In this document: one piece after another, positions 3,150 to 50,956 of the stretch | How positions within the stretch are numbered: position 1 is the stretch's first letter | Layout: the number at the start of each line of letters is the position of its first letter | Program-made: the position numbers and the translations under genes | NCBI GenBank assembly: GCA_041661385.1 | Contig: JBAZUP010000003.1 | Span: 36,299-100,298 of the forward strand | DNA length: 64,000 nt | Source of the DNA: Patescibacteria group bacterium | GTDB taxonomy: Bacteria > Patescibacteriota > Patescibacteriia > Magasanikbacterales > GWA2-37-8 | Direction: 5' to 3' | The notes under the pieces: generated by a model | Seen by the model: the letters and a program-made list of their open reading frames with translations, nothing else | The model's database searches: none | What the model was told of the DNA's origin: nothing

Positions 3150-3186
3150 AACCTCGTAACTTCGGTTACGGGGTTCTTTTATTTTA
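3150..3186 (+). terminator. rho-independent terminator (UUCG tetraloop)
   Basis: AACCTCGTAAC-TTCG-GTTACGGGGTT followed by TCTTTTATTTT. Confidence 0.7.
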
Positions 3187-3253: not shown

Positions 3254-3475
3254 CTCCCTTCGCGCATTACGCAAGGTAAATACTCGCACTAGACGATAAA
3301 TGTGCGAACAGCAAAGCGGCGTGTTTGAGTGAAACGAGTTTGCCGTTTGCGGCACATCGCCATAGAACGAGTTTACCTGAAGTACGGCGCTTGACTTTTT
3401 TGCTTGCTTTTTGTGTCAAGACAAAAAGCAAGACGCGCCAGCGAAAAACGCACTCGTTCCATCTAACAAAAACAA
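3254..3475 (+). repeat. structured ~220-bp intergenic repeat, copy 1 of 3 (GC-enriched, nested hairpins)
   Basis: ~85-90% identical to 15838-16050 and 17263-17474; 12-bp perfect hairpin CTTGCTTTTTGT/ACAAAAAGCAAG. Confidence 0.85.
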
Positions 3476-3496
3476 AAAAGTTCCAAAGGAGAAAAA

Positions 3497-3634
3497 ATGA
3501 AAACATTCAATGTTATCGTCGAATTCACGGTTGAAGCAATCGACGAACAAGAGGCTGACGATAAAATTACACCTGCTCTTATCGATTTTAAATATGATTA
3601 TACCGACATTACTTTTTATGAAATAGAAAACTAA
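3497..3634 (+). CDS. small acidic hypothetical protein (45 aa)
   Basis: AAAGGAGAAAAA RBS immediately downstream of repeat copy 1. Confidence 0.4.
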   Translation: MKTFNVIVEFTVEAIDEQEADDKITPALIDFKYDYTDITFYEIEN

Positions 3635-3643
3635 GGAGCCTCA

Positions 3644-4012
3644 ATGTATTCAAAAATCAATCCCTTCGAATACTATAAAAACGATATCACCCACAACGAC
3701 CTGCTCATCGCCTTAGACAACCAAATCAAATCCGTATACCCAGAAATGTATAACAACCTGCACTGGGGCTTTGAATGCAAATATGGCGAAGAGCGATTTC
3801 AAATAGTTAGCCATAACGCTTTTTATATTGCCGCACCATATCCCGGCGATAACGAAGGACTAATAATTGGAATTTATCAAGACTTCGGCAACCAAGCACA
3901 AAGAATCGGTTGTGCCAAAATACTCGACACCGGCTACGACGGAAAAAAATTCGTCTGCAAACTATCCGGAATCATCAACCAATGGTTCCTGCAAAACGCA
4001 ATCTACAACTAA
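3644..4012 (+). CDS. hypothetical protein
   Basis: CTAAGGAGCC RBS; upstream of radC-like gene. Confidence 0.55.
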   Translation: MYSKINPFEYYKNDITHNDLLIALDNQIKSVYPEMYNNLHWGFECKYGEERFQIVSHNAFYIAAPYPGDNEGLIIGIYQDFGNQAQRIGCAKILDTGYDGKKFVCKLSGIINQWFLQNAIYN

Positions 4013-4035
4013 AAATACAGAAATTGGAGATGTTT

Positions 4036-4662
4036 ATGGATCACAGAAAACAAATACTGGAAATACGCGAACAAATGACCGAGTACGGTGCAACCGGCGT
4101 AAACGACATCGACCTTCTGATGTCCAGTCTAGCCGTCGATAAAACCACCGCCAAGCGAGTTTTAGCGGCATTAGATGAAAACTTCGACAACTTAAACGTG
4201 TCAAAACTAAAAGAACAAGTTGGCAACACAACCGGAAACAAAATTGTAGCCTTCCAGGAACTATTTCGAAGACGCTACAAACCATCATTTGACAAAATTA
4301 TCAAACCGACCGACGCATTAAAATACATTCAACATTACGCGCAAAACAAACAAGAACATTTAATAGTAATACTGCTTAACGGCGCCTGTGAAGTTATTAA
4401 AACATCCGTCATCACCATTGGTTTATTAGACCGATCTTTAGCACATCCGAGAGAAGTCTTTGCTGAAGCAGTTAACGAACGAGCCGCCAACATAATAATC
4501 GCCCACAACCATCCAAGCGGACAACTTTCCCCAAGCAACGAAGATCGAAAACTAACCATTCGCTTACAACAAGCCGGAGAGTTATTAGGAATACCACTAA
4601 TAGATCACTTGATATTTTCCACAAAAGGCCACTATTCATTCAAAGAACACGGCGAACTATAA
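4036..4662 (+). CDS. radC: RadC-like JAB/MPN domain protein (DUF2466)
   Basis: HNHPSG and downstream Glu/Asp JAB signature; start moved to ATG after GGAGA RBS (track ORF begins 3910, overlapping previous gene). Confidence 0.8.
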   Translation: MDHRKQILEIREQMTEYGATGVNDIDLLMSSLAVDKTTAKRVLAALDENFDNLNVSKLKEQVGNTTGNKIVAFQELFRRRYKPSFDKIIKPTDALKYIQHYAQNKQEHLIVILLNGACEVIKTSVITIGLLDRSLAHPREVFAEAVNERAANIIIAHNHPSGQLSPSNEDRKLTIRLQQAGELLGIPLIDHLIFSTKGHYSFKEHGEL

Positions 4663-4679
4663 CTATTTAAGAGGTAACT

Positions 4680-4907
4680 ATGATTGTTGCAATAACAAAT
4701 TTAAATGAAATACCAAAAATGTGCTCTTGCGTAAATATAATCCATAATTGCACCCAAACACAACGCTGTAATTATTTTCACTACGACGATAATATAAAAA
4801 AACACATTTGCCTTATCACCGGCAATGCAATAACTACAACCGACATCGAAAACACACCGCGGCCACCGTGGTGTATGCTGAGAAAATTACCAATAATTAA
4901 TATTTAA
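4680..4907 (+). CDS. Cys-rich small protein
   Basis: AAGAGGTAAC RBS. Confidence 0.4.
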   Translation: MIVAITNLNEIPKMCSCVNIIHNCTQTQRCNYFHYDDNIKKHICLITGNAITTTDIENTPRPPWCMLRKLPIINI

Positions 4908-4922
4908 AGGATATACAACACT

Positions 4923-5252
4923 ATGAGCTACAACAAAATGATGAATTGGACAAAAAAACACACAAAACGACCAAAACAACCAATATTCGGCATGCCTTTC
5001 AAAGCCGGAGAAAAAGTTGAATCCGGTCCCGGCATGTGTAAAAGACTTTTCGAAGAAAGACGTGGCTCAAAATGGTTTTGTGTAATGGCATGGAACAAAG
5101 AACAACGAGACTATACCGACCAAGTATCAGAAACCTTCATTGAATGGGATGATGCGGTAAATTTTGCTAGAGAATATGAGAAAACTCACAATCTATCAGA
5201 AAACGCAACCGCTATTTACAACAGCTTTGGTATGAAATCATATGGATATTAA
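4923..5252 (+). CDS. hypothetical protein
   Basis: AAAGGATATAC RBS. Confidence 0.5.
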   Translation: MSYNKMMNWTKKHTKRPKQPIFGMPFKAGEKVESGPGMCKRLFEERRGSKWFCVMAWNKEQRDYTDQVSETFIEWDDAVNFAREYEKTHNLSENATAIYNSFGMKSYGY

Positions 5253-5268
5253 CAATAACGAGGTAATA

Positions 5269-6888
5269 ATGAACTTATTTGACATCTGCGAACCAAAAAA
5301 CCAATTTTACCCTACGCCGGATAATTTAATTGACAAAATGCTGCTAAAAATTGATTTTAACAAAATTAACACTATCCTCGAACCAAACGCAGGAACAGGG
5401 AACATCCTGGATGCCATAAATCGCAAAATTAAATCAAATTGGGATTTACGCCACAACAAATACGACATCGATGCAATTGAAATAGACCACAATTTTCAAC
5501 ACATACTCCGAGGAAATAAACATCGTATCGTACACGACGACTTTTTAACTTTTGACACCTTAAAACACTACGACCTAATAATAATGAACCCTCCTTTTGC
5601 AAACGGCGAAGAACATCTGCTAAAAGCCATGAAAATGCAGGAATCCGGCGGCAATATCATTTGTATTTTAAATGCGCAAACGCTACACAATCCATATTCA
5701 CTAACCCGAAAAGATTTATTGAGAAAACTCAACGACCTTAACGAGAACGTTGAAATTTCTTACCATGATAACGCCTTTTTAGATTCAGAAAGAAAAACAG
5801 CGGTAAAAATAGCGCTGATCAAAATCACAATTCCACTAACAAAACTCAACAGTGTTTTTATTGACGGTCTAAAAGCCGAAGAACGTTATAAACAGGAAAA
5901 CAACGTCAATTATATTGCAAAATCTGAATTAATCGACAATATAGTTGATCAATACAAAATGGAAGTAAAAGCCGGGATAAAACTGATTAACGAATACAAT
6001 GCAATGCTTCCATATATCCAAAACCATTATGATCCCAATTATGAATACTCAAAACCTATTATTAAATTAGAAATTGAACACGGCGAACATAATAACAGCG
6101 ACATCAACAATTATGTCAGACAAGTTCGTATGAAATACTGGCAAGCTTTGTTTGCAAAACCGGAATTTACAAACCTGTTCACATCCGAACTACAAACAAT
6201 TTATCACAACATGGTTGAAGACTTTATCAATTATGATTTTTCCGCATACAACATAAACCAAATCAAAAACCGTATAATGGCACAATTATCAACCAGTGTA
6301 GAAGACACTATAATCAAACTATTCGACGAGTTTTCACACAAATACCACTGGATGAACGAAACATCGAAAAACATCCACTACTATAACGGATGGAAAACAA
6401 ACAAATCTTGGAAAATAAATAAGAAAATCATACTTTTGCTAAATGGATATAGCAGATATAGTCCGGGAAATTTCGATCCGGACAATTATGAAACCGGCCG
6501 CAAAATTCGTGATATCGAAAAAGTCTTCAACTATTTAAACACCGAAGACACCGACCATATTGACCTAGTACGTGCCTTGAAATATGCAAAAATAAATGAA
6601 CAAACCAATAAAATCAAAACAAAATATTTTAATTTAACATTTTACAAAAAAGGCACCTGCCACATCGAAATCACCAACGACCGCCTATTGAAAAAATTCA
6701 ACATCTTCGGCAGCCAACGCAAAGGCTGGTTGCCGCCAAATTACGCAAAAAGCAAATATACCGACATGACCGCCGAAGAAAAAAGCGTAATCGACGAATT
6801 TGAAGGCGAAGCAGAATACAACAAAACCCTAATAAACAAAGACTACTACATCACCCAAAACAGCCAATTGTTGCTGAATTGTGCCTAA
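5269..6888 (+). CDS. N6-adenine DNA methyltransferase (gamma-type; motif I EPNAGTGN, motif IV NPPF) with large C-terminal target-recognition region; apparently orphan
   Basis: LEPNAGTGNILD and IIMNPPFANGE motifs; GAGGTAATA RBS before internal ATG. Confidence 0.85.
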   Translation: MNLFDICEPKNQFYPTPDNLIDKMLLKIDFNKINTILEPNAGTGNILDAINRKIKSNWDLRHNKYDIDAIEIDHNFQHILRGNKHRIVHDDFLTFDTLKHYDLIIMNPPFANGEEHLLKAMKMQESGGNIICILNAQTLHNPYSLTRKDLLRKLNDLNENVEISYHDNAFLDSERKTAVKIALIKITIPLTKLNSVFIDGLKAEERYKQENNVNYIAKSELIDNIVDQYKMEVKAGIKLINEYNAMLPYIQNHYDPNYEYSKPIIKLEIEHGEHNNSDINNYVRQVRMKYWQALFAKPEFTNLFTSELQTIYHNMVEDFINYDFSAYNINQIKNRIMAQLSTSVEDTIIKLFDEFSHKYHWMNETSKNIHYYNGWKTNKSWKINKKIILLLNGYSRYSPGNFDPDNYETGRKIRDIEKVFNYLNTEDTDHIDLVRALKYAKINEQTNKIKTKYFNLTFYKKGTCHIEITNDRLLKKFNIFGSQRKGWLPPNYAKSKYTDMTAEEKSVIDEFEGEAEYNKTLINKDYYITQNSQLLLNCA

Positions 6889-6898
6889 AGGAGAAAAC

Positions 6899-7159
6899 AT
6901 GGTCAAAAAGAAAACCACCACCCCGCAAAACTTCGAGTATCTTGGAATGTTAGTGAAACCATACAAAAAACTAACCGGCATCGACGCTGATTTTGCAAGA
7001 AAGGTTTCTCGCGCCTCTCGTTCTGCTACGCCACCGGGCTGGAACTACGACGAATTTTACAAAACCGCCAAAGCCCACAATTGCGGCGATTTTGATTTAT
7101 TCGAAGTAGACGGAAAACTGCGAATAGCAGGAAAACCTTGTTTTTTCGTCTACGAATAA
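6899..7159 (+). CDS. hypothetical protein
   Basis: TAAAGGAGAAAAC RBS. Confidence 0.5.
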   Translation: MVKKKTTTPQNFEYLGMLVKPYKKLTGIDADFARKVSRASRSATPPGWNYDEFYKTAKAHNCGDFDLFEVDGKLRIAGKPCFFVYE

Positions 7160-7294
7160 TCCCGAAAAACCTCCGTCACAAAACGACCGACGCTTTGCAA
7201 ACCCCGTTACCGGCTTGCAAAACGCGGTCTTATTTGTCCGAATGAACTCATTTCTTTTCAGAAGTTAAATCAAAACTATAAGGAGTTTTAAATT

Positions 7295-7504
7295 ATGAGC
7301 TACCAAGGAAGTTTAAGAATCAAAGACAATAAAATCATGTTTATGGAATATAGAGTCATCGGCGAAATAATAAATAACATTGCCCACGTCGATCCGATGT
7401 ACCACTGCGGCGAAGTATCCGACGGTCTCGACCACAACGGATTTAGCGAAAGCAACAAGAATCTTGTTTGGACTAAAAAACCCGAAACCGCAAACAAATT
7501 ATAA
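7295..7504 (+). CDS. hypothetical protein, paralog of 7517-7834
   Basis: shared IINNIAHV...GL.HNG...N.NL.WT..PETA motif. Confidence 0.45.
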   Translation: MSYQGSLRIKDNKIMFMEYRVIGEIINNIAHVDPMYHCGEVSDGLDHNGFSESNKNLVWTKKPETANKL

Positions 7505-7516
7505 GGAGCAATATTC

Positions 7517-7834
7517 GTGGAAAATCGTAATATACTAAAAACAAATAACGCAGAAAATTTTGCAAAAATAAACGGAATGTTAGACGTTTTTTATGCACAT
7601 AAAAAGCTGTTTGACGCCGTGCCACGCCTTGAAATTAAGCACGTAAGAATATACGACAACACCTTGATCTACAAAGGCTACATAATTATTGGAAAATTAA
7701 TCAACAACATTGCGCACGTAAAAGACATTTATAATCAAGCAGAAGTAATAGCCGGCTTAACCCACAACGGCTACAACCAAGAAAACCAAAATCTGATCTG
7801 GACAACACAACCGGAAACCGCAGGCGTTTTATGA
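7517..7834 (+). CDS. hypothetical protein, paralog of 7295-7504
   Basis: AAGGAG RBS, GTG start. Confidence 0.5.
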   Translation: MENRNILKTNNAENFAKINGMLDVFYAHKKLFDAVPRLEIKHVRIYDNTLIYKGYIIIGKLINNIAHVKDIYNQAEVIAGLTHNGYNQENQNLIWTTQPETAGVL

Positions 7835-8031
7835 ATGATTTACTCGAAGATTGTAAAAAAGTGACAAGTGAAGAATTTTACGAAAATCTTAAAGCGACAG
7901 CTACGGCGGGAAGAGATATAATGCCGCGCATCATTAATGATAGAGTTCCTTACATAGAAGAATGGAAGGATAAACGCGATCGAAAAACATTTGGCTATAC
8001 ATTTGGTGCAGAATATTTTTTAGTAAAGTAA
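7831..8031 (+). CDS. hypothetical protein
   Basis: overlapping start (ATGA). Confidence 0.35.
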   Translation: MNDLLEDCKKVTSEEFYENLKATATAGRDIMPRIINDRVPYIEEWKDKRDRKTFGYTFGAEYFLVK

Positions 8032-8059
8032 ACCGAAAAAGAATTAGGAGACAAACGAA

Positions 8060-8497
8060 ATGAGCATCAAAATCTTAGACGCTAGCAGAATATTATCCGC
8101 CTACCAAGCCTTCAAAACCGAAGACAGGTTACACATCGAGCGCGGATATTACGAATACATTGATACAGACTGGGACAAGCACGGATTTTGCCACCTGCAA
8201 ACACTAATAAACGCCAACAGACTAAGCTTCGCCAACAAATACAAAGAAACCGAAAACGTCGAGATTTTAACCATCGCAAAATACGAAGCGCTCATATCAA
8301 AATGGAACTCCGAAAAAACGACCCCCGAACAAGCGTTAATGACGTTGAAGTGCTTGTTCTACAACATCGAACTAGAATATCTACCACCGCTACCACTCTA
8401 CGAAAACGCCTTAAAACAACTCGATTACACCATCAAAGACCTAACCGAGCATATACTAAAGAAAAATCCGGCATATTTAGCCGCAAAATGGGGATAA
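8060..8497 (+). CDS. hypothetical protein
   Basis: TTAGGAGACAAAC RBS. Confidence 0.5.
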   Translation: MSIKILDASRILSAYQAFKTEDRLHIERGYYEYIDTDWDKHGFCHLQTLINANRLSFANKYKETENVEILTIAKYEALISKWNSEKTTPEQALMTLKCLFYNIELEYLPPLPLYENALKQLDYTIKDLTEHILKKNPAYLAAKWG

Positions 8498-8498
8498 A

Positions 8499-9158
8499 AT
8501 GGTTCGAGTAATCACCTACGACGAATACCAAAGCAACGCGACCATCCATATAGGTAAACGCATCGTCGAAATCGACGATTATGTTATTGATGAGGAAGGA
8601 GCGAGCTGGACACATATTTGCAAAACCTGCGCCCGGAAGTTGTGCATCCCTAAACACTATATTTCCGAAGGCGGCTCCGGCGAAGCCATATGCGGAATTG
8701 CCGGTTGCGAAAGACGAGCAACTGCTGGATATTTCGACATCCCACACCCAGGGACGCTGTGTGCAAAAAACTCAACCGACTGGTTTAAAACCGACGATTA
8801 TCAATTATGTCAAAAATTATCCGAGACCAAATTCAGCATAATCGAATTTAGAACGTTCATGGGAGCGCAAATACATCCAAACACAAAATTCCCAAATTCA
8901 ACAGTGTATATAGGAACTAAGTTTGAGTTCGATATTTCCGAAATGTCAAAAACGGATATTGTCGAAACAATCCAATCTTACGGCTACAACTCAATCGAAG
9001 CAGTGAGTGCCGCTTATCCGGAAAACGCCGACCAAATAATTGCCGAATGTCTGGCAGAAAGTTGGCCAATATCCGAAGGTAAAATTGTATTCAAAGGAAC
9101 AAAACAACAAGCCGACGCTTGGATTACTGAATTTATTTCAAAGGAGAACAAATCATGA
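8499..9158 (+). CDS. Cys-rich (zinc-binding?) hypothetical protein
   Basis: CKTCARKLC...CGIAGC cluster. Confidence 0.5.
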   Translation: MVRVITYDEYQSNATIHIGKRIVEIDDYVIDEEGASWTHICKTCARKLCIPKHYISEGGSGEAICGIAGCERRATAGYFDIPHPGTLCAKNSTDWFKTDDYQLCQKLSETKFSIIEFRTFMGAQIHPNTKFPNSTVYIGTKFEFDISEMSKTDIVETIQSYGYNSIEAVSAAYPENADQIIAECLAESWPISEGKIVFKGTKQQADAWITEFISKENKS

Positions 9159-9340
9159 CCGGAGACTGCACCCAAATATCAACCGAACTACTAGAAATCC
9201 AATGCCCGGCATGTGGCAACACGCAAGAATATAATTGGAACGGTAAAAACATCTTCGGAACAACTAAATGCGACAACATCGAGTGTGACGAAATATTTCG
9301 TTTCCAATACCACCCCGAAAAACTAAAAAAAGCCGCATAA
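9155..9340 (+). CDS. zinc-ribbon small protein
   Basis: CPACG...CDNIEC. Confidence 0.45.
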   Translation: MTGDCTQISTELLEIQCPACGNTQEYNWNGKNIFGTTKCDNIECDEIFRFQYHPEKLKKAA

Positions 9341-9376
9341 CAAACTAACTTATATTAGTTAGCTATAAGGAGAAAT

Positions 9377-9778
9377 GTGTTCAAAGAGCAAAAACGAGAC
9401 TACCGTAGCACCATACTAAACATTCTAAAAAGACACCCGCAACTCTGCCAAAAACTAATTGTCCTTTCAATCGGCTACTTAACGCCAAATAAAGCCGCCG
9501 ACATGATCCGCGCCTACCAACAAAAAACCGGCTGTTACTGCGAATGGATATCCAGCATAGTAGACCGACGAATCAATAAACCAATTTGGAAAACTATGAC
9601 GCCGACCGAACGCCACGATTTCGAGTTGTCTGAAAAACAAATGTACGCTACCGTAACAAAAGAACTAATCTGCGATGCCATCCGCTTGCGAAAACAAACT
9701 TATGGCGCAAAACAAGCTAAAGAAGCTATAAACGCCCAATTAACCGGAACACAAGTGCTATTTGCATCATTCTTTTAA
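9377..9778 (+). CDS. hypothetical protein
   Basis: AAGGAG RBS, GTG start. Confidence 0.5.
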   Translation: MFKEQKRDYRSTILNILKRHPQLCQKLIVLSIGYLTPNKAADMIRAYQQKTGCYCEWISSIVDRRINKPIWKTMTPTERHDFELSEKQMYATVTKELICDAIRLRKQTYGAKQAKEAINAQLTGTQVLFASFF

Positions 9779-9787
9779 GGAGTTATC

Positions 9788-9958
9788 ATGTCCGACAACA
9801 TTAGACATCGAATTTCATATATTCAAGATACCACCGACCAACTTTGGGAAGCAATAATCAACAAAGAACACTCAAAATCATGCGAATTAACCGAAATCCT
9901 GGCAAAACAATCCAAAGAACTAGAAATCGCAATAGAAAAGGAATTAGGAAATGGCTAA
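9788..9958 (+). CDS. small hypothetical protein (56 aa)
   Basis: TAAGGAG RBS; not in ORF track (<60 aa). Confidence 0.4.
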   Translation: MSDNIRHRISYIQDTTDQLWEAIINKEHSKSCELTEILAKQSKELEIAIEKELGNG

Positions 9959-10655
9959 ATTTAAAATAAACGTCCACTGGGAAATGTACGACATAATTGA
10001 AATTGAAGCGCCGACGCTAAAAGACGCAATAGCAATAGTCAATCACGAAAACTTCCCATTGCCGGCAACCGGCGAGTATTTAGACGACAGCTTTCGCGTC
10101 GATGAAGAATATTGCGAAACAATCGAGGAAGATTTTGTAACTATTTCAATCAACGATCATCAAGCTGAATTGCTAAAACAATTTGCCTCCAGCGACAATA
10201 ACACCACGAAAACAGTAATCGAACTATGCCCGCACTGCGAACATGAAGCAACGCTGGAGCTGGAACTCCACGACAATATTCTTGCAAAAACATGTCCGAA
10301 TTGCGGGAAACAATTAATGCTTTGTAGCGAATGTCCCAATAGCCGTTGCAACACTTGCCCGCACAAACCAACCGTTTTGAAAAAATACTCCGTAATGGTG
10401 GAATCCACAGTCATGGCAAGAAACGAAGACGAAGCAATGTGTATAGCCGACACAATACCTTTCAACTCTTTTTACGAAGGTGAAGTACTAAACGCAAGCT
10501 CTGTTAGCGTAGTCGAATTACAACCACAAATACACACAGTATCAGTGCGTATCGAAGTAAACGCAAATAACGCCTGTGAAGCCCAACGTTTAACTGAAGC
10601 AGCAATAAACGTCCTGGACACCGGCATAAATATAAAGGAGCTAAAATGCGCATAA
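9951..10655 (+). CDS. hypothetical protein with internal repeats and a CxxC zinc-ribbon
   Basis: QAELLKQFASS motif repeated in next ORF. Confidence 0.5.
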   Translation: MAKFKINVHWEMYDIIEIEAPTLKDAIAIVNHENFPLPATGEYLDDSFRVDEEYCETIEEDFVTISINDHQAELLKQFASSDNNTTKTVIELCPHCEHEATLELELHDNILAKTCPNCGKQLMLCSECPNSRCNTCPHKPTVLKKYSVMVESTVMARNEDEAMCIADTIPFNSFYEGEVLNASSVSVVELQPQIHTVSVRIEVNANNACEAQRLTEAAINVLDTGINIKELKCA

Positions 10656-10957
10656 GTATTGAAATCACAAACCGCCAAGCCGAATTATTAAAACAATTTG
10701 CCACAAGCAACAACATGGCAACCAGAGATCCGATAGTGCAAATCATCAACAACGACACCAAACTGCCGGTTGCATACTTCTTCACGGTAGAAGAAGCACG
10801 TCGAGTATTCAAACTACGCCGCTACGCATACACCAATCATTCAATTTATCTCGACGCACCAGGCGAGGGAACAGAAGATAGCGACTGGACTCATTTTTAT
10901 CAACTGTTGAAATACATTGCAACAAATATCTGCAACGTCCAGGAGACTACGCCATGA
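10646..10957 (+). CDS. hypothetical protein (shares N-terminal motif with 9951 ORF)
   Basis: NRQAELLKQFATSNN. Confidence 0.45.
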   Translation: MRISIEITNRQAELLKQFATSNNMATRDPIVQIINNDTKLPVAYFFTVEEARRVFKLRRYAYTNHSIYLDAPGEGTEDSDWTHFYQLLKYIATNICNVQETTP

Positions 10958-11071
10958 TTTTTTATATTATATTAGCAATATGGGTTGTATTAATACTACT
11001 TATATCAAAATCGACAAAGCCAATAGAGTTACTAACTAACTTAGTAAGTTAATTAGTAAACAGGAGTAATT

Positions 11072-11665
11072 ATGAAAATACTACAACTAAAAACTTACCC
11101 GTTTTCTGAACTATCAACAAAAGCCAAAACTAAAGTTATTAAAAACTGGAATCACAATATTAACAGCATAAATGAATGCAGTTATCAAGAAATAATTGAA
11201 CAAGCTGCTAATATCATTGGCGTCAAAGTTGTAAATTGGAGCATTGACATCTACACCAAATATTTTGAACTCGAATTCGACCCTTGTTATTACCCGGAAC
11301 AAATAAAATCTTTAACCGGTACCAGATTATACAAATATATCCATAATTTCATCATACCACAAATAACCATTGCAGAACCAAACGACAACGACGGTTATAT
11401 CTGGCTCCGTGACGATTATTACGGCGATGACGGGGCACAATATATCTTTTCGAAAATGTTAGACTTTAACCCCAAAGAAAATAAAAACACAACTTACGAA
11501 ATGTTATCTTTTGCCGTAATCGACTATATTTTTGACATGTGGCAAACAGATGCACAATATCGCGAATTCGAAGAATACTTAGCTGAATATTTTAACCAAA
11601 ACGAATACCTTTTTGACATAGAAAGTAATATAATAAACCAAAGATTATTCAAAGAAGTAGCTTAA
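11072..11665 (+). CDS. hypothetical protein
   Basis: ACAGGAGTAAT RBS. Confidence 0.5.
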   Translation: MKILQLKTYPFSELSTKAKTKVIKNWNHNINSINECSYQEIIEQAANIIGVKVVNWSIDIYTKYFELEFDPCYYPEQIKSLTGTRLYKYIHNFIIPQITIAEPNDNDGYIWLRDDYYGDDGAQYIFSKMLDFNPKENKNTTYEMLSFAVIDYIFDMWQTDAQYREFEEYLAEYFNQNEYLFDIESNIINQRLFKEVA

Positions 11666-11753
11666 GATAGAACAAAAGAGTGATAAATGTATAAAAATAT
11701 TACGCCGTTGCCACCCTGCTTTTTGAAAAATTAATTAACCCAAAGGAGCCTTT

Positions 11754-12164
11754 ATGAACTACAAACGTTTCTGTTTTGGATGGGGAATATTGTTGACATT
11801 TTATTTTCTAATGTGGTATTTCACCGGGTACAACACACTTAACACTTTAATCTTGGCATTGTTAACACAAATAGCACTATTTGCATACGATTTACACAAA
11901 AAAAACAAAATAATATCAACCATGCGAAAACAAATTGAATTTCCGCGAACAAGCACCGAAGGATTGATATTAGAATCAACTTATGCCGTATGGTTTATCA
12001 CCTTAACCAGCATAATAACATATTCAATCCTCATCAGAACAGATATGAAATTATTGATCATTTGCAACTTGGCAATTATCGTATTTTTTCAAATAAGTTA
12101 TCTACACATGAGAGATAATTATATTAAAATTTTGAAACACCTAATTAACGAACAAAATAATTAA
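11754..12164 (+). CDS. small membrane protein (paralog family with 12723 and 22802 ORFs)
   Basis: AAAGGAGCC RBS; TM helices. Confidence 0.5.
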   Translation: MNYKRFCFGWGILLTFYFLMWYFTGYNTLNTLILALLTQIALFAYDLHKKNKIISTMRKQIEFPRTSTEGLILESTYAVWFITLTSIITYSILIRTDMKLLIICNLAIIVFFQISYLHMRDNYIKILKHLINEQNN

Positions 12165-12182
12165 AAACACAAACATGTTCTC

Positions 12183-12214
12183 AAGCCAGCGTTTTAAGCT
12201 GGTTTCTTTATTTT
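12183..12214 (+). terminator. rho-independent terminator
   Basis: AAGCCAGC...GCTGGTT followed by TCTTTATTTT. Confidence 0.7.
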
Positions 12215-12266
12215 AAACTATAAATCAAAAAATATGTTATCATATTAAAAAACAGGAGTATTAAAA

Positions 12267-12701
12267 ATGTTATATTACATAAGCTTAGGAATAGCTATTC
12301 TATCATTTATAATGGTATTCATAACACTTGCTTTAAATAATTTTTCCCGCTTAATATATTTAGCATGTGTAGCATTAATAATATCCATGCCACTAGCACT
12401 TTTATCCGCAAATAGTTATTCTTATTTACCAATTAAGCCTAACTATCTACAAGAATGGATTATGCCTATTGTGCAAAGCAACGAAAAACTATATACTACC
12501 GATAAGGATTTCACATATGTTTATATTGGCAATAACAACAACTCAACCCGTTGGAGTTTAGATATGAATGCCGAAAAAATAATAATAATTAAAGACGCTG
12601 CCGGACCGGGTTCGTCATATATTATCAAAAAAACGTCTCCAATGACTTTTATCTCATTACCGGTAAGCTATTACGAAATTCACATACCACCAAATTATTA
12701 A
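12267..12701 (+). CDS. membrane-anchored protein, C-terminal YEIHIPPNY (paralog of 27131 ORF)
   Basis: AACAGGAGTA RBS. Confidence 0.5.
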   Translation: MLYYISLGIAILSFIMVFITLALNNFSRLIYLACVALIISMPLALLSANSYSYLPIKPNYLQEWIMPIVQSNEKLYTTDKDFTYVYIGNNNNSTRWSLDMNAEKIIIIKDAAGPGSSYIIKKTSPMTFISLPVSYYEIHIPPNY

Positions 12702-12722
12702 CAAAAAGAGAAGGTAATCAAA

Positions 12723-12938
12723 ATGTGGCTTAAACCAGTATATATGGGATGGCTAGCAATAATTGCTATAGAATTTCTTATTTGGATAATTTCCGGGTAT
12801 AATATGAGCTGGCCAATAATAGGCACGCTTGCGGCTACCACTATTTGTTTAGCTTATGAAATTAGAAGCTTACACAAATACATAGAAAATTACGAAAAAA
12901 ACGTCAAATTACTGCTCGATAACAAAGACGGTTTTTAA
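12723..12938 (+). CDS. small TM protein with YIENYEK motif (paralog of 22802 ORF)
   Basis: GAGAAGGTAA RBS. Confidence 0.5.
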   Translation: MWLKPVYMGWLAIIAIEFLIWIISGYNMSWPIIGTLAATTICLAYEIRSLHKYIENYEKNVKLLLDNKDGF

Positions 12939-12967
12939 ACAAACACTTCTATAATATCAAAATAACC

Positions 12968-13000
12968 AAAGCCAGCATTTTATGCTGGCTTCTTTCTTTT
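12968..13000 (+). terminator. rho-independent terminator
   Basis: AAAGCCAGCA...TGCTGGCTT followed by CTTTCTTTT. Confidence 0.7.
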
Positions 13001-13024
13001 AAATTAACCCAACAGGAGGCACAC

Positions 13025-13315
13025 ATGAACCTAAAAATCAAAACACTCGCCGGTTGCAACAAACCAACCTACTCCGAATACCTACAACCAAACGACCAGG
13101 TAGATGAAGACATGGTAGATTATTTCAACGAAGTACTACCACCACTAAAAACCCGTGCCGGTTTAATTCAGTGCAGCGAACCCTACGACCACGTAAACGG
13201 AAAAGCAACATTCACAACTTTTGAGCAAATTGGCAAAGATTGGTTTTATCGCGGCCACTGCCACCACAACGAAACAGAACACAAAATTGGAATTTTTGAA
13301 TTAAATACTAACTAA
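13025..13315 (+). CDS. hypothetical protein
   Basis: AACAGGAGGC RBS. Confidence 0.5.
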   Translation: MNLKIKTLAGCNKPTYSEYLQPNDQVDEDMVDYFNEVLPPLKTRAGLIQCSEPYDHVNGKATFTTFEQIGKDWFYRGHCHHNETEHKIGIFELNTN

Positions 13316-13326
13316 TATTAGTTAGT
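13307..13326. promoter_or_regulatory. perfect 20-bp palindrome ACTAACTAATATTAGTTAGT (member of intergenic operator family)
   Basis: upstream of ligA RBS. Confidence 0.6.
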
Positions 13327-13340
13327 AAACTTAGTAATAA

Positions 13341-15374
<2,034 letters not shown>

Positions 15375-15389
15375 GAAAGGAATATTATC

Positions 15390-15824
15390 ATGAACGATTA
15401 TTTAGCACTAAAAAAGAATCAGGCAGACCGATTAGACCTATTCACAAAAGACAATATGTTTTTTGCATTTAGCAAACAACAACTCGAAGAAGGTATGAAA
15501 AGTTTAGGCGTAACAGATACGTCACAATTATCAAGCATACCGGGCGGTGGTATTATTTTGAAAGATAAAGTTGCTGAATATAAAGAACTCGGGACAGCTT
15601 TCAGCGACGAAATGCAAAAAGCCATTGACTCGGACACAACCGGAGAAGGCTTTATTTACAACATGTTCTTGTACGAACTAGACAACCACGAATACAGCTA
15701 CACCGGCGAACTAGACCAAACACTAGACGCTTTAGACTTAACCTTAGAAGCAGTAAACGCAAGCCAACCCTTGCTAAACGGACTTAACTTAGCCATTAAA
15801 AAGCAAAGACAAATGTACGCTTAA
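15390..15824 (+). CDS. hypothetical protein
   Basis: GAAAGGAATATT RBS. Confidence 0.5.
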   Translation: MNDYLALKKNQADRLDLFTKDNMFFAFSKQQLEEGMKSLGVTDTSQLSSIPGGGIILKDKVAEYKELGTAFSDEMQKAIDSDTTGEGFIYNMFLYELDNHEYSYTGELDQTLDALDLTLEAVNASQPLLNGLNLAIKKQRQMYA

Positions 15825-15837
15825 TCACCACTCGCCA

Positions 15838-16050
15838 TCCCCTCCGCGCAATTACGCAAGACAATTACTCGCTCTAGGCGAAAAATGTACGAACAGCAAA
15901 GCGGCGTGTTTGAGTGAAACGAGTTTGCCGTTTGCGGTACATCGCCGTAGAGCGAGTTTGCCTGAAGTACGGCGCTTGACTTTTTTGCTTCCTTTTTGTG
16001 TCAAGACAAAAAGCAAGACGCGAACAGCGGAACACGCACCACGTCCACTG
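15838..16050 (+). repeat. structured intergenic repeat, copy 2 of 3
   Basis: see 3254-3475. Confidence 0.85.
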
Positions 16051-16066
16051 AAAAAAGGATATTATA

Positions 16067-16516
16067 ATGAAAAAATATAAAACCAAATACATCCAACACT
16101 TCGACGACGAGCGCCAAATCGGCAACGGAATAATAGTCACCCTGCACTATGGCTGGTCATACGAGCCAAACGAACACCAAGGCGTGCGAGGTTTTGATAA
16201 AATAACCGAAGCTATCTCGGCATCAAGGCACAAGAACATCTACCCGTGCAAATGTGAATTATGCTTAAGAAACTTAAGGCAGAAAGGAAATAAAATAAAT
16301 GAAAAATTGCAAAAAACAATAAAAGAGCATTATCTAACCCCGGAACTAATAAAACTTCGCGACATCGTTAGTTGTATTGTAGTTATGTGCTACCTGCCCA
16401 AGAAAAAAGAATACGTTGTCTGGTTTTACAACGAAAGTTCCGGATTTTTTCTAGGTTGTTATTACCAAAGCCGCGATGCAGCTGAAATAAAATTCGAAGA
16501 AAGAATTAGTTGCTAA
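16067..16516 (+). CDS. hypothetical protein
   Basis: AAAAGGATATT RBS right after repeat copy 2. Confidence 0.5.
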   Translation: MKKYKTKYIQHFDDERQIGNGIIVTLHYGWSYEPNEHQGVRGFDKITEAISASRHKNIYPCKCELCLRNLRQKGNKINEKLQKTIKEHYLTPELIKLRDIVSCIVVMCYLPKKKEYVVWFYNESSGFFLGCYYQSRDAAEIKFEERISC

Positions 16517-16587
16517 GTTATATAACTAATATAACTTAGTTAGTATAATAAAAGATTTTATGAACATTTAATTAAAAGGAGAATATT

Positions 16588-16935
16588 ATGGGCTTTTTCA
16601 GTTGGAAAACCAAAGACACCAGTGTATCAATCCCTTCTTGTTATAGCAAAAGAAAAACGATTAAGGTTTATATGGTCCTGCCGGACAAAACGGTGTACGA
16701 AGAAAGCAATTATGAAGGATATGGGTTTTTTGGTGGCAAAAACTATTATGAAGCATTAAGCGAAATTAATGGCGGGCCGTCCGACGATAATTACGGTATA
16801 AACATCGAACATAACTTACGCGGTAAGTGTACCAACTTAGTGTTTCCTCAATTAGTAGAAGATCCAAATTCGCTAACACCCGATTCATTTAAAACGCCAA
16901 ACGACAATTGCGAGTATCAGGGATATTTTTATTAA
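16588..16935 (+). CDS. hypothetical protein
   Basis: AAAAGGAGAATATT RBS. Confidence 0.5.
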   Translation: MGFFSWKTKDTSVSIPSCYSKRKTIKVYMVLPDKTVYEESNYEGYGFFGGKNYYEALSEINGGPSDDNYGINIEHNLRGKCTNLVFPQLVEDPNSLTPDSFKTPNDNCEYQGYFY

Positions 16936-16963
16936 AACCAACATTTCTTTTTAAGGAGTCGCC

Positions 16964-17236
16964 ATGCCACAACGACCATTAACGAAAAAACTACTATCCA
17001 TAATCATTGCAGTACAAGATTATGCGAAATATCACAGAAGTCACAACATTATGCTTCGTAACAACAACATACAAGAAACCAGTTATTGGTTTGAAGAAAC
17101 ACGAGATTATTATTTTGGGTTACCAACAAAAATACTCAAAAACGCCAAGTTAAAACCTTCTACCGACGATTTTGAATATGTTTTATCATTTAAAGTAACG
17201 CCAGAAATGTTAAAAATCGAATTCAAAAACTCTTAA
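16964..17236 (+). CDS. hypothetical protein
   Basis: TAAGGAGTCGCC RBS. Confidence 0.5.
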   Translation: MPQRPLTKKLLSIIIAVQDYAKYHRSHNIMLRNNNIQETSYWFEETRDYYFGLPTKILKNAKLKPSTDDFEYVLSFKVTPEMLKIEFKNS

Positions 17237-17262
17237 TATTCTCCTCGTCGTTCCCCTCCGCG

Positions 17263-17474
17263 CATTACGCAGGGAAACTACTCGCACTAGGCGAAAATTG
17301 TGCGAACAGCAAAGCGGCGTGTTTGAGTGAAACGAGTTTGCCGTTTGCGGCACATCGCCGTAGAGTGAGTTTAACCGGAGTACGGCGCTTGATTTTTTTG
17401 CCTCCTTTTTTTATCAAGAAAAAAAGCAGGACGCGCCAGCGGAAAACGCACTCGTTCCACCTAACGAAAACAAA
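17263..17474 (+). repeat. structured intergenic repeat, copy 3 of 3 (carries compensatory changes)
   Basis: see 3254-3475. Confidence 0.85.
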
Positions 17475-17742: not shown

Positions 17743-17777
17743 CAACTATGCGGCAGCATTATTTTTTAGGAGTAAAA

Positions 17778-22801: not shown

Positions 22802-23011
22802 ATGAAAACTTATTTAACGCCAATGTATTTTTTATGGGGCGCGTTGATATCTAGTGAACTACTAGCGTGGTATTTTAACGGTTTTAATCCAATAGCAATA
22901 TTTGCTTTAATTGGAACCCTATCTGCGATCGTTATCTGCCTAATATCTGAAATTTGCAGATTAAACGAATATATTGAAAATTACGAAAAAAGTAAAACTA
23001 ATGTTATATGA
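22802..23011 (+). CDS. small TM protein (YIENYEK family)
   Basis: paralog of 12723-12938. Confidence 0.45.
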   Translation: MKTYLTPMYFLWGALISSELLAWYFNGFNPIAIFALIGTLSAIVICLISEICRLNEYIENYEKSKTNVI

Positions 23012-44793: not shown

Positions 44794-45999
44794 ATGATAA
44801 CCATAAAAACAAAAGAACTCACTACAACACTAAACCTGATTCATAAAACCTTTGCATCGGATTTTTCTAGTAAAACCGGCATCGATCGCATCCATATCGC
44901 AACACTCCCGGCTAAAGACGTTCTCGGAACAGGCATATTAAGCATTACCGCTTATTCAAAAGACAAGCACATGAGTGCAACTATTCCATGCAATATTGAA
45001 ACAGATTTGACTGCGTATGTAGCCGGCTCGTCTTTTTGCAATCTAATTGCATCCTTAACCGACTATGACGAAATTAAACTTTCGCTGCAAGACACTTCTC
45101 TGAAAATTATCGCTAAAGCCTCTAAATACGTATTACGCACCGCAAATTTAGAAGATTTCCCTAAAATGCCGGAATATGTCAAAAACAATTCTGTAACATT
45201 GACTGCGGCAGAATTACGAAAAGTATTAAACAATACTGCCTTTTGTACATCAAACGACGAGGCTCGACCGTTATTTACCGGTTTGTGTATGGAATTTAAT
45301 GCAGCAGATAATTCACTAATTGTCACTGGTACAGATACTCATCGAATGGGCATTGATAAAATTTCTAATCTGCAAACTTTGTCGTTAATCGATGATAATA
45401 ATAAAATAATTGTACCGGCAAAAGCGCTATCTGACGCAGTTTCGTTTTTAGGAAAAGATGATACCGCAGAAATTTTGCTATATTGGAACAAAAACAAAAT
45501 CACCTTCGTTATTAATAATAACAATTTGATTTTTCAAACCGCTTTAATAGACGGCCAATTTCCAAATTGCCAAAGGGTTGTTCCACTCGATGAAAATATA
45601 GCTTTCTCCGTTGACTTGCCCCGTGAGAAACTGGAAAAATCCATAACCCGTATTTTAGTAATGGCAAAATCCTCAAAAAACAAATTTAACACCCTTAAAT
45701 GTTCGTTAAAAATGCCAAACGAAGTTTTAGTCATCACAACTGTAAATCTTGACCTGGGCGAAGGAGCAGAGGCGCTGCAAGGCAAAGTAAGCGGAACCGC
45801 AATTGAAAACTTTGAAATTGGCATTAATGCACAATACTTATTGGATATTTGCAAAAAAACAACGACTGACAACATAAAATTTGATTTTACTTCAAACCAG
45901 TTACCAATCCGGACCAATTTCAACAATAGTGCTATACACGTTTTAACCCCGATCCGGGTTAATGATATGAAAAATACTATAACGGAAAAAGCCGCTTAA
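44794..45999 (+). CDS. dnaN: DNA polymerase III beta sliding-clamp (DnaN) homologue
   Basis: ~400 aa three-domain layout; N-terminal ...L...L..v...v......ilsn.. pattern, LEDFPKMPE motif; CTAAGGAGAAATATG RBS. Confidence 0.7.
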   Translation: MITIKTKELTTTLNLIHKTFASDFSSKTGIDRIHIATLPAKDVLGTGILSITAYSKDKHMSATIPCNIETDLTAYVAGSSFCNLIASLTDYDEIKLSLQDTSLKIIAKASKYVLRTANLEDFPKMPEYVKNNSVTLTAAELRKVLNNTAFCTSNDEARPLFTGLCMEFNAADNSLIVTGTDTHRMGIDKISNLQTLSLIDDNNKIIVPAKALSDAVSFLGKDDTAEILLYWNKNKITFVINNNNLIFQTALIDGQFPNCQRVVPLDENIAFSVDLPREKLEKSITRILVMAKSSKNKFNTLKCSLKMPNEVLVITTVNLDLGEGAEALQGKVSGTAIENFEIGINAQYLLDICKKTTTDNIKFDFTSNQLPIRTNFNNSAIHVLTPIRVNDMKNTITEKAA

Positions 46000-49341: not shown

Positions 49342-49373
49342 TTTTAAGAACGATTTTAAGAACGATTTTAAAG
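49342..49373 (+). repeat. tandem 12-bp direct repeat TTTTAAGAACGA x2 (protein-binding site candidate: parS or DnaA-box-like)
   Basis: seen directly. Confidence 0.5.
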
Positions 49374-49412
49374 AGTCTCGCAAGTCCCGCCAATGTTGAG
49401 CTACAGAGGACG

Positions 49413-49603
49413 AACTACGACAGAAATATGGTCAACTACGACAAAATTCGTGTTAACTACGACAGAAATATGGTCAACTACGACAAAATTCGTGCCGAAC
49501 TACGACAAAAATATGGTTTCTACGACGTAAATATGGTCAACTACGACATAAACCGTGCCACTTACGACAAAAAAATGGTCACTTACGACATAAATATGGT
49601 ATA
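49413..49603 (+). repeat. iteron array: ~9 direct 21-22-bp repeats AACTACGACA(R)AAATATGGTC, alternating with AACTACGACAAAATTCGTGYY
   Basis: directly upstream of rep; contiguous, no spacers. Confidence 0.85.
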
Positions 49604-49628
49604 CTAAACAAAAAAATTAGAGGGAATT

Positions 49629-50839: not shown

Positions 50840-50912
50840 AACTACGACAAAATTATGGTCTAAACATAATCACTTACGAAGAAAATATGGTCAACTACGA
50901 CAAAAATATGGT
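50840..50912 (+). repeat. three further iterons downstream of rep
   Basis: AACTACGACAAAATTATGGTC, ACTTACGAAGAAAATATGGTC, AACTACGACAAAAATATGGTT. Confidence 0.75.
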
Positions 50913-50956
50913 TACATTTTTTTCATAAATAAAAAAACAAAAAAAGGAGCAACAAA

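Follow-up and report, generated by a model that had tools for sequence, protein, structure and literature searches.

Here we ask what kind of element stands three times, as a GC-rich and self-complementary unit, in a stretch of 64,000 nucleotides (nt) of a plasmid-like contig assigned to a Patescibacteria group bacterium (JBAZUP010000003.1 of assembly GCA_041661385.1, positions 36,299 to 100,298 of the forward strand; the window, in what follows, is the whole of this stretch). An earlier note made from the sequence alone had described structured repeats with compensatory base changes ahead of plus-strand genes on a conjugative element, and had offered to read them as single-strand promoters or priming sites acting on transferred DNA, or else as a shared leader RNA. 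Our analysis gives another answer. The copies belong to a previously uncatalogued family of self-folding intergenic repeats, built of a hairpin and a pseudoknot and spread across many bacterial phyla, and all three are members of that family lying in intercistronic spacers of the contig. The best reading is that of a non-autonomous intergenic repeat comparable to the enterobacterial repetitive intergenic consensus (ERIC) and repetitive extragenic palindromic (REP) elements, with a far wider distribution.

The three repeats are real and stand essentially where the note had put them, as seen with a repeat search (which placed them at 3256-3476, 15841-16061 and 17254-17474, with ungapped identities to copy 1 of 79% and 90%), a MAFFT alignment (mean column identity of 86%, with a block of 48 nt invariant in all three) and a covariance model made from the relatives described below, which picked out exactly three places in the window with E values from 1e-8 to 3e-8, the next best having E = 0.065. 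In all three the unit measures about 220 nt. Their reported GC enrichment is likewise real, with values of 0.50-0.52 in the copies against 0.29-0.43 in 2-kb windows (background about 36%). That each copy lies just upstream of a plus-strand gene is correct for copies 1 and 2, which precede the open reading frames (ORFs) beginning at 3498 and 16067 and lie 50-66 nt from their start codons with Shine-Dalgarno sequences, but not for copy 3, after which the next ORF with an ATG starts only at 17748. Copy 2 begins directly after the stop codon of a DUF7659 gene and finishes at the ribosome-binding site of the ORF at 16067-16516, and copy 3 begins directly after the stop codon of the ORF at 16964-17236. 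About 70 nt upstream of copy 1 there is a canonical intrinsic terminator, AACCTCGTAACTTCGGTTACGGGGTT followed by a T-run (3150-3185); no sigma-70-type promoter was predicted between this terminator and ORF 3498.

The anatomy of the unit is given in Table 1. Its first large part (module 1) is an imperfect hairpin of about 90 nt that folds in all three copies with energies from -28 to -42 kcal/mol and carries at its tip an apical module, in which conserved TTTGA and GAGTT flanks surround a mini-hairpin (G-C, T-A, loop GAA). The stem that the earlier note had taken for a second, separate one does pair, but is the top of this long hairpin. The CCGTAG/TACGG pairing proposed beside it competes with pairs in the lower part of that hairpin, and by eye it has no counterpart in relatives. 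After a linker follows module 2, in which a 12-bp hairpin exposes the loop GTCAAG, complementary to an upstream CTTGAC; this arrangement is present as described, but the hairpin is perfect in copy 1 only, copies 2 and 3 having a C.C mismatch within it. The two double changes that the note gave for copy 3 are confirmed: within the hairpin G-C has become T-A, and between hexamer and loop CTTGAC/GTCAAG has become CTTGAT/ATCAAG. With one in module 1, where G3304-C3353 of copies 1 and 3 is A-T in copy 2, they make three compensatory changes among the window copies. The loop of module 2 may pair with hexamer a as a pseudoknot or as an alternative pairing, the two helices forming together or alternating, and the linker possibly contributes U.A-U triples to such a loop-to-strand pseudoknot. 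Folding of single copies on both strands, as RNA or as DNA, gave z-scores of -2.4 to -3.9 throughout and did not distinguish the strands.

Table 1. Window positions of the repeat units, of their parts and of a second repeat family
Feature	Position	Strand	Basis or detail
Copy 1, whole unit	3254..3476	+	sequence, MAFFT, repeat search, covariance model
Copy 1, small hairpin GCGCATTACGC	3262-3272	+	first part of unit
Copy 1, module 1, long imperfect hairpin ACTCGC...CGAGT	3282..3375	+	RNAfold, compensatory change, family covariation
Copy 1, top of module 1, GCAAAGCGGC paired with GCCGTTTGC	3311-3320 with 3342-3350	+	RNAfold
Copy 1, apical module GT-GTTTGAGTGAAACGAGTT-T	3321..3341	+	exact 18-mer common to at least 119 genome loci
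Copy 1, linker between modules 1 and 2		+	14 nt
Copy 1, module 2	3390..3432	+	RNAfold; same architecture in other loci
Copy 1, module 2, hexamer a CTTGAC	3390-3395	+	
Copy 1, module 2, T-rich linker TTTTTTG	3396-3402	+	
Copy 1, module 2, arm b CTTGCTTTTTGT	3403-3414	+	
Copy 1, module 2, loop a' GTCAAG	3415-3420	+	
Copy 1, module 2, arm b' ACAAAAAGCAAG	3421-3432	+	
Copy 1, tail after module 2		+	about 45 nt
Copy 2, whole unit	15838..16061	+	sequence, MAFFT, repeat search, ORFs, covariance model
Copy 2, module 1, long hairpin	15867..15957	+	RNAfold -41.8 kcal/mol, covariance model; apical 18-mer 15908-15925
Copy 2, module 2, CTTGAC / GTCAAG	15975..16017	+	hairpin with one C.C mismatch
Copy 3, whole unit	17254..17474	+	sequence, MAFFT, repeat search, ORFs, covariance model
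Copy 3, module 1, long hairpin	17280..17370	+	RNAfold -36.5 kcal/mol, covariance model; apical 18-mer 17321-17338
Copy 3, module 2, CTTGAT / ATCAAG; TTTTTTT / AAAAAAA	17388..17430	+	two compensatory double changes
TAACTAA/TTAGTTA palindromes	13296, 16501, 32633, 36455, 40510, 42183, 44077, 44744, 46023, 46731, 47843		

Relatives were found with the apical module. A scan of one genome per species (596 Gb) for the exact 18-mer GTTTGAGTGAAACGAGTT, from which all our distribution figures come, matched at least 119 stretches, against about 17 expected by chance (both strands, 4^18; our own arithmetic). Among the matches listed, 94 of 119 have flanks that pair at 8 or more of 9 positions with arms of unrelated sequence, and the remainder include probable chance matches inside ORFs. 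Carriers belong to Fusobacteriota, Bacillota, Bacteroidota, Pseudomonadota, Gastranaerophilales, Patescibacteria, Elusimicrobiota and spirochaetes, and comprise Fusobacterium, Finegoldia, Lachnospiraceae, Mediterraneibacter, Clostridium, Bacteroidales, Flavobacteriia, Sphingobacterium, Gamma-, Alpha- and Deltaproteobacteria, Campylobacteraceae, Gastranaerophilales, Elusimicrobiaceae, Treponemataceae, Saccharibacteria and other Patescibacteria; cultivable species such as Fusobacterium nucleatum and Finegoldia magna are among them, and Sphingobacterium gobiense and Empedobacter brevis carry the element too. Like ERIC and REP elements, the family has many dispersed intergenic copies per genome beside unrelated genes: 31-40 places match in the genome of F. 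vincentii SB055, and one Lachnospiraceae metagenome-assembled genome (MAG) supplies at least 14 loci, 14 of them aligned. Scanning metagenomes for a 20-nt part of the invariant block yielded two matches, one of which (L018) has only 25 nt in common with the window, yet builds the same architecture from different sequences.

Copy 1 had no blastn match (word size 11) in any of the 72,556 plasmids of PLSDB, nor did the first 25 kb of the window have a DNA match there, and copy 1 had none among the INPHARED phages. Hairpin-type matches of the motif in PLSDB were confined to Fusobacterium records (one of them 2.1 Mb long and apparently a chromosome), the other four records having short matches of 18-21 nt with E of about 4, probably by chance. 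The motif was absent from 5,426 E. coli genomes. Scans of viral contigs gave 14 chance matches to the stem pattern without further similarity, no match to a loop 21-mer, and two matches to a 17-mer, both without hairpins. Rfam 15 at gathering threshold, applied to the whole window and 18 related loci, had no match at the element, and in E-value mode on copy 1 and two relatives it returned only chance matches of microRNA type. A full-text literature search with the motif in DNA and RNA letters and with descriptive terms found nothing relevant, a description under another name being possible.

The claim that base pairing is under selection is borne out, and on much stronger evidence from the relatives than the three copies could give. 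Across 85 sequences aligned to the model, all 10 pairs of the upper stem covary with changes on both sides, 89% of the cells are paired, and the covariation score is 0.591, against 0.147 in shuffled alignments (none of 500 reached 0.591) and at most 0.206 in slid controls. This alignment was fitted to the covariance model, which favours structure; the raw listing of matches shows the same pattern. The apex looks invariant because the exact 18-mer was the search key, and most of the additional copies found with the covariance model in the same loci have variant loops, such as GAGCGAAGCGAG, GAGCGTAAGCGAG, GAGCGTCAGCGAG, GAGTGCTAACGAG, GAGTGCAACGAG and GAGTGAAGCGAG, or, in Fusobacterium, a centre replaced by the longer inner hairpin GCTGAC-TT-GTCAGC. 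All variants keep a small hairpin between conserved TTTGA and (G)AGTT flanks, made of G-C, then U-A, C-G or U.G with a loop of 3-4 nt, or of a longer stem. From these few sequences, such a G-C/U-A mini-hairpin would suit the apex better than the GUUU/AAAC mini-helix given by RNAalifold, which we rejected for lack of covariation, and the flanks probably meet in a symmetric internal loop built from U.U, U.G and tandem G.A pairs. By eye the apex was likened to parS, the hammerhead core, K-turns, T-loops and helices 35-37 of 16S rRNA, and CTTGAT to the nick site of pC194 or phiX174; all these resemblances were dropped, since either a defining feature failed or other family members were without the sequence.

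Module 2 is also a recurrent structure. It returns about 65 nt after the apical motif in the window copies and in about 20 other loci, from Bacteroidota, Proteobacteria, Gastranaerophilales, Elusimicrobiaceae and one metagenome contig, with the same layout of hexamer a, T-rich linker, hairpin b/b' (a T-run against an A-run) and loop a' complementary to a, and eleven loci build this architecture from other sequences. At least nine versions of a/a' occur (CTTGAC, CTTGAT, CTTGAA, GGTTCG, AAAGAC, GGCGAA, GGACAG, GCATC and ATGGA), and the b/b' pair adjoining the loop covaries as well (GC, GA/TC, GT/AC, TC/GA, TT/AA), so that both helices of module 2 show the covariation expected of an H-type pseudoknot. 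A complementary run of at least 5 bp was present upstream in 9 of the 32 automatically parsed cases, compared with 1 of 32 in the downstream control.

The strand that folds can be told from wobble pairs. When the apex was replaced by GAAA, the orientation reading GTTTGAG... was the more stable one in 25 of 29 two-module loci and in 43 of 51 loci of the rod form described below; G-U pairs in the inner 30 nt numbered 37 in this orientation against 16 in the other (two-module loci) and 69 against 17 (rods), and with the apex kept the count was 99 against 14 (99 of 113). By eye, the wobble pairs of b/b' are also G.T on the + strand, and further out in the rods of one Lachnospiraceae MAG the bias towards G-U vanishes or reverses. 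Owing to this asymmetry of G-U or G-T wobbles, the folding strand in the window is the gene-sense (+) strand.

Nearest neighbours of the relatives are housekeeping genes of all kinds, on both sides; the relatives lie overwhelmingly on chromosomes and not in the leading regions of mobile elements, and no enriched family or transposase appears among the neighbours of about 190 copies. Two architectures can be distinguished. The two-module form, to which the window copies belong, is co-oriented with the upstream gene in a ratio of 19:7 (and in all three copies of the window) and with the downstream gene in a ratio of 15:9, and in Bacteroidota it sometimes forms co-oriented clusters, one locus having four copies between genes that include UDP-glucose dehydrogenase and sugar-nucleotide enzymes, and four others having two or three copies each. 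The rod form, found in Bacillota and Fusobacterium, has the hairpin in the middle of a nearly perfect rod of 240-340 nt with conserved internal loops and energies down to -252 kcal/mol, and the Lachnospiraceae copies end in an A-run, a GC stem and a T-run. Nine copies of the Lachnospiraceae MAG have nearly identical inner 80 nt and outer stems of 30-38 bp that are strongly divergent, each almost perfectly self-complementary. A link to integration sites in tRNA or tmRNA genes, suggested by three cases, was ruled out as a general one with ARAGORN on 120 loci. In one contig labelled Bacteroidaceae (L100, 412-732), two tandem matches to Clostridiales-1 RNA (RF01699) stand about 60 nt upstream of the hairpin element.

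Comparison of closely related Fusobacterium genomes gave the evidence for movement. In F. nucleatum SB042 (L040) the element stands within a segment of 189 nt that is missing from the orthologous site of F. vincentii SB055 (L150), between flanks that are 92-96% identical. The empty site is a bidirectional terminator, AAAAAACTGTTGC-AAATATT-GCAACAGCTTTTTTT, and the element occupies its loop, without target duplication at the junction (ambiguity of at most 1 nt). At a second site (L078, 3170-3420, and L151, 1280-1450), two F. vincentii strains that align at 95.6% identity across 2.5 kb have unlike variants there, oppositely oriented and with short outer segments that also differ, which points to repeated targeting of, or replacement at, one site. 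Orthologous sites in the Fusobacterium branch thus show the presence/absence polymorphism known from ERIC and REP elements, and judging from these alignments at least this branch moves between sites. Insertion into a terminator loop would account for the outer arms of the L040 site, which pair perfectly and have A/T runs beside them, and may account for the location of the element at gene 3' ends. The earlier note had seen no sign of a miniature inverted-repeat transposable element (MITE), and indeed there are no hallmarks of terminal repeats or target duplication and no neighbouring transposase, so that a classical MITE is rejected; relatives nevertheless show insertion polymorphism.

Taking these results together, the reading that we favour, with about even confidence, is that a mobile self-folding repeat was inserted in the plasmid, where its + strand would be read together with the plasmid genes and any action it has would be that of a stable RNA structure; from transcription onward we infer. 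Each of the plasmid copies would have arisen when a non-autonomous mobile element entered an intercistronic spacer. Since the folding + strand has the same sense as all genes of the contig, the element is most likely co-transcribed with the genes that flank it and folds in their mRNA. There, the long hairpin could be a barrier to 3' exonucleases or a processing site, with the pseudoknot at the 5' side of the next cistron, and the overall effect would resemble that of ERIC and REP elements or of the RNase III sites that phages have between cistrons. A putative trans-acting factor, either a mobilising enzyme or an RNA-binding protein, probably recognises the conserved apex. The copies do not appear to act as a promoter.

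Several points weigh against this reading. Mobility is seen only in the Fusobacterium branch, which is without module 2, and for the window copies we found no empty site, terminal repeats or target duplication. No gene for a mobilising enzyme was identified among the neighbours of the family's copies. An apparently empty site could also arise by loss of the centre of a long palindrome; the dispersed multi-copy distribution requires insertion at some point. The orientation and the G-U bias, on which action at the RNA level is based, would also be expected if single-stranded DNA (ssDNA) were what folds. Bacillota rods are mostly antisense to the gene whose 3' end they abut (44:13), which does not fit a simple role in the 3' untranslated region of the upstream gene. 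The invariance of the apex across phyla is in part an artefact of the exact 18-mer search, and the pairing of loop a' with upstream a is unclear in the Flavobacteriia copies.

Some of the same observations would also suit action at the DNA level, an alternative that we consider unlikely. The element would then be a non-autonomous ssDNA transposon, of the type of the palindrome-associated transposable elements (PATEs) of IS200/IS605 or of REP elements with their REP-associated tyrosine transposase (RAYT), or a substrate of another HUH or tyrosine enzyme that recognises hairpins; one DNA strand would fold, the apex would be the binding site of the enzyme and the plasmid copies would be passengers. 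Strand-specific folding, many copies per genome, insertion without visible target duplication into a terminator loop prone to be single-stranded, and reinsertion or replacement at the same site in opposite orientation all agree with this, as do loop variants such as GCGAAGC, which match a DNA mini-hairpin reported by Hirao and co-workers to be extraordinarily stable. Beside about 190 copies, however, there is no Y1/HUH transposase or enriched family; the element has one central hairpin and not two subterminal ones; and in eight Fusobacterium copies that were compared the junction ends are ill-defined and A/T-rich, with no conserved target motif or tetranucleotide, so that of the features looked for in an IS200/IS605-type PATE we find no duplication, a single central hairpin and no common target. 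The G-U pairs (about 5-7%), the U-rich pseudoknot and the tandem G.A pairs are moreover more typical of RNA.

Rather unlikely, in our judgement, is a cis-regulatory or factor-binding RNA used by the plasmid, whether for processive antitermination like put or EAR or as a leader acting on translation or stability. The sense orientation fits co-transcription, which is the part of the leader or riboregulator proposal that stands, and the position of copies 1 and 2 relative to their downstream ORFs, the similar spacing in three other loci, the co-oriented arrays inside long operons and a conserved apex that suggests a conserved partner such as RNA polymerase would all agree with such a role. Against it, the downstream genes across the family are functionally unrelated (adenylosuccinate lyase, MatE, valyl-tRNA synthetase, a DEAD helicase, a nitroreductase and UDP-glucose dehydrogenase, for example), for which reason a riboswitch or a common downstream function was rejected; many copies lie between convergent genes; and copy 3 is without a gene directly downstream. 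Related elements bearing a DUF7659 gene are also without the repeat. A link of the element to DUF7659 or to the downstream gene of 149 amino acids was rejected: the element is missing from loci with homologues of the neighbouring DUF7659 protein, so it is not ancestral to this gene neighbourhood. One of these other conjugative-type loci (L146, 6993-16662) has instead nine copies of a 63-nt intergenic module, with direct TATATTTTAGGTATATTTT repeats and a GTATAAT -10 box ahead of each small operon, from which we take it to be a repeated promoter/operator and not a hairpin element.

The note had also proposed that the repeats act on transferred single-stranded DNA. In the form of a single-strand initiation site (ssi) or single-strand origin (sso), where primase, PriA or RNA polymerase would be brought to the hairpin of the + strand to begin complementary-strand synthesis, after transfer or in the course of replication, we find this quite improbable. 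The design does resemble ssoA-type origins, with their long, orientation-specific hairpin, conserved motif in the terminal loop and conserved stem element; among the genes of the contig are those for primase, for a MOBQ relaxase and for type IV secretion; and the mini-hairpin sequences are stable in DNA. But no CS-6 (TAGCGT) or RSB motif was seen by eye, no rolling-circle Rep occurs among the scanned window proteins, and the family is dispersed in chromosomes, where most copies stand beside housekeeping genes in either orientation; the element inserts into terminator loops, and no PLSDB plasmid has anything similar. Were transfer to follow the F-like pattern, in which the leading genes have the transferred strand as their template, the folding strand would be the wrong one; an RSF1010-type nick sequence of an origin of transfer (oriT) was not found, and because no oriT was found the transferred strand of the contig is not assignable.

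Extremely unlikely, and largely refuted by this analysis, is an Frpo-like promoter, whose template strand would fold into a duplex-like hairpin with -35 and -10 boxes for early transcription in the recipient: it is true that the contig is of conjugative type, that copies stand upstream of co-oriented genes resembling those of leading regions (RadC, DUF4942 methyltransferase, ligase), and that Frpo elements, identified by sequence similarity, are repeated structures in such regions (PMC11541004), but in an Frpo promoter it has to be the template strand of the driven genes that folds (PMC11541004), whereas the wobble pairs put this fold on the sense strand, consensus scans found no -35/-10 pair (16-18 nt spacing) inside any copy on either strand, the hairpin has about 90 nt in place of a promoter-bearing stem of about 300 nt, there is no similarity to F, ColIb or any PLSDB plasmid, and the family is mainly chromosomal.

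Among known systems, the closest likeness is to intergenic palindromes. ERIC elements, or intergenic repeat units (IRUs), are imperfect intergenic palindromes of about 100-130 nt, usually transcribed and present in many copies per genome, that differ in presence between related genomes without clear target duplications and have been proposed to affect mRNA stability through RNA structure; we know of no transposase associated with them. The family described here is alike in being an imperfect, multi-copy intergenic palindrome with presence/absence polymorphism and no associated transposase. ERIC, however, is confined to Enterobacteriaceae and Vibrio and is conserved in sequence, whereas this family spans many phyla, keeps only the apical module and the architecture while its stems differ completely, and has a pseudoknot subclass and a rod subclass of 240-340 nt. 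REP elements, with the bacterial interspersed mosaic elements (BIMEs) and RAYTs, and the IS200/IS605 PATEs resemble it in their strand-specific hairpins, in the absence of target duplication, in what would be activity on ssDNA and in their place near gene 3' ends; but REPs measure about 35 nt, have a conserved GTAG foot, are lineage-specific and have a RAYT gene in the genome, and neither a RAYT gene among the neighbours nor a foot motif at the junctions was seen here. Elements of the IS1397 or IS110 type insert into REP palindromes, while in our case the inserted element is itself the hairpin. The Frpo and ssi sequences of F-like and IncI plasmids are also repeated structured elements upstream of co-oriented early genes, and differ in the strand, hexamers, sequence, hairpin length and location already discussed. 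Integron attC sites, as in the Vibrio VCR arrays, are strand-specific imperfect hairpins between co-oriented genes with structure conserved above sequence; unlike in attC, the conserved part here is at the apex and not in outer R''/R' boxes. An attC identity was rejected by eye, since the RYYYAAC...GTTRRRY pattern is misplaced, ATCTAAC/ACCTAAC being confined to the 3' ends of copies 1 and 3, and a scan of the proteins from 20 of the larger window ORFs showed no gene of integrase type.

The contig that carries the window is 105.9 kb long (ENA ERZ27249449, k141_1704730), comes from a metagenome and has all its long ORFs on the + strand. It encodes a Rep3 initiator, primase, topoisomerase III, TrbI, VirD4 and VirB11, together with a MOBQ-type relaxase whose nearest plasmid relatives, at about 50% identity, are in Fusobacterium; RadC, the DUF4942 methyltransferase, the NAD-dependent ligase and the DUF7659 protein are encoded near the repeats. 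Directly upstream of the Rep3 gene (49629-50831), at least eight direct repeats of 21 bp, iterons of the CTACGACA type, occupy 49373-49614, with one more pair downstream of the gene at 50875-50914, and this region is probably the vegetative origin. A second repeat family consists of at least twelve A/T-rich palindromes of about 44 nt each with TAACTAA and TTAGTTA half-sites (for example AAACTAACATTACTAAGTAAACTTAGTTAGTAATGTTAGTTATA); apparently mostly intergenic, they resemble an operator or promoter module common to the plasmid's genes. NAD-dependent DNA ligase (13365-15374), a DnaN-like sliding clamp (44794-45999) and topoisomerase III (54721-56592) form an unusually complete replication and repair set for a plasmid. 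Genes for tRNA-Ser(TGA) at 1186-1274 and tRNA-Tyr(GTA) at 1304-1387 lie about 2 kb upstream of copy 1. Two pairs of direct repeats inside ORFs, 71-75% identical (12817-12900 with 22908-22991, and 10138-10198 with 10653-10713), suggest paralogous small genes in an accessory region. The protein encoded at 15390-15824 is identical to one that NCBI lists from a Patescibacteria group bacterium MAG. Assignment of a contig of conjugative type to Patescibacteria is either remarkable or a binning artefact, the binning of plasmid contigs being unreliable.

A bolder proposal we put forward tentatively and think unlikely to be right as a whole: a pan-bacterial class of non-autonomous, strand-specific mobile hairpins would propagate by insertion into terminator loops, its apex read by a putative, widely conserved enzyme or host factor, and the two-module form on the plasmid would have been exapted into an RNA device for insulating or stabilising cistrons. 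When leading regions of plasmids are scanned, the present case is a caution, as repeated GC-rich structures that covary upstream of early genes need not be single-strand promoters. If the family is as it appears, an element of many phyla, cultivable species included, has escaped the catalogues of RNA families. It combines an apical motif shared across phyla on unrelated stems, a covarying pseudoknot in one subclass and signs of recent movement into terminator loops, and is set apart from palindromes of the ERIC and REP type by the breadth of its carriers, its conserved apex, its pseudoknot module and its insertion into terminator loops. The questions that it raises are what recognises the apex, how a hairpin of 100-330 nt spreads without a transposase, and how its arrival may retune termination and mRNA stability in the genomes that carry it.

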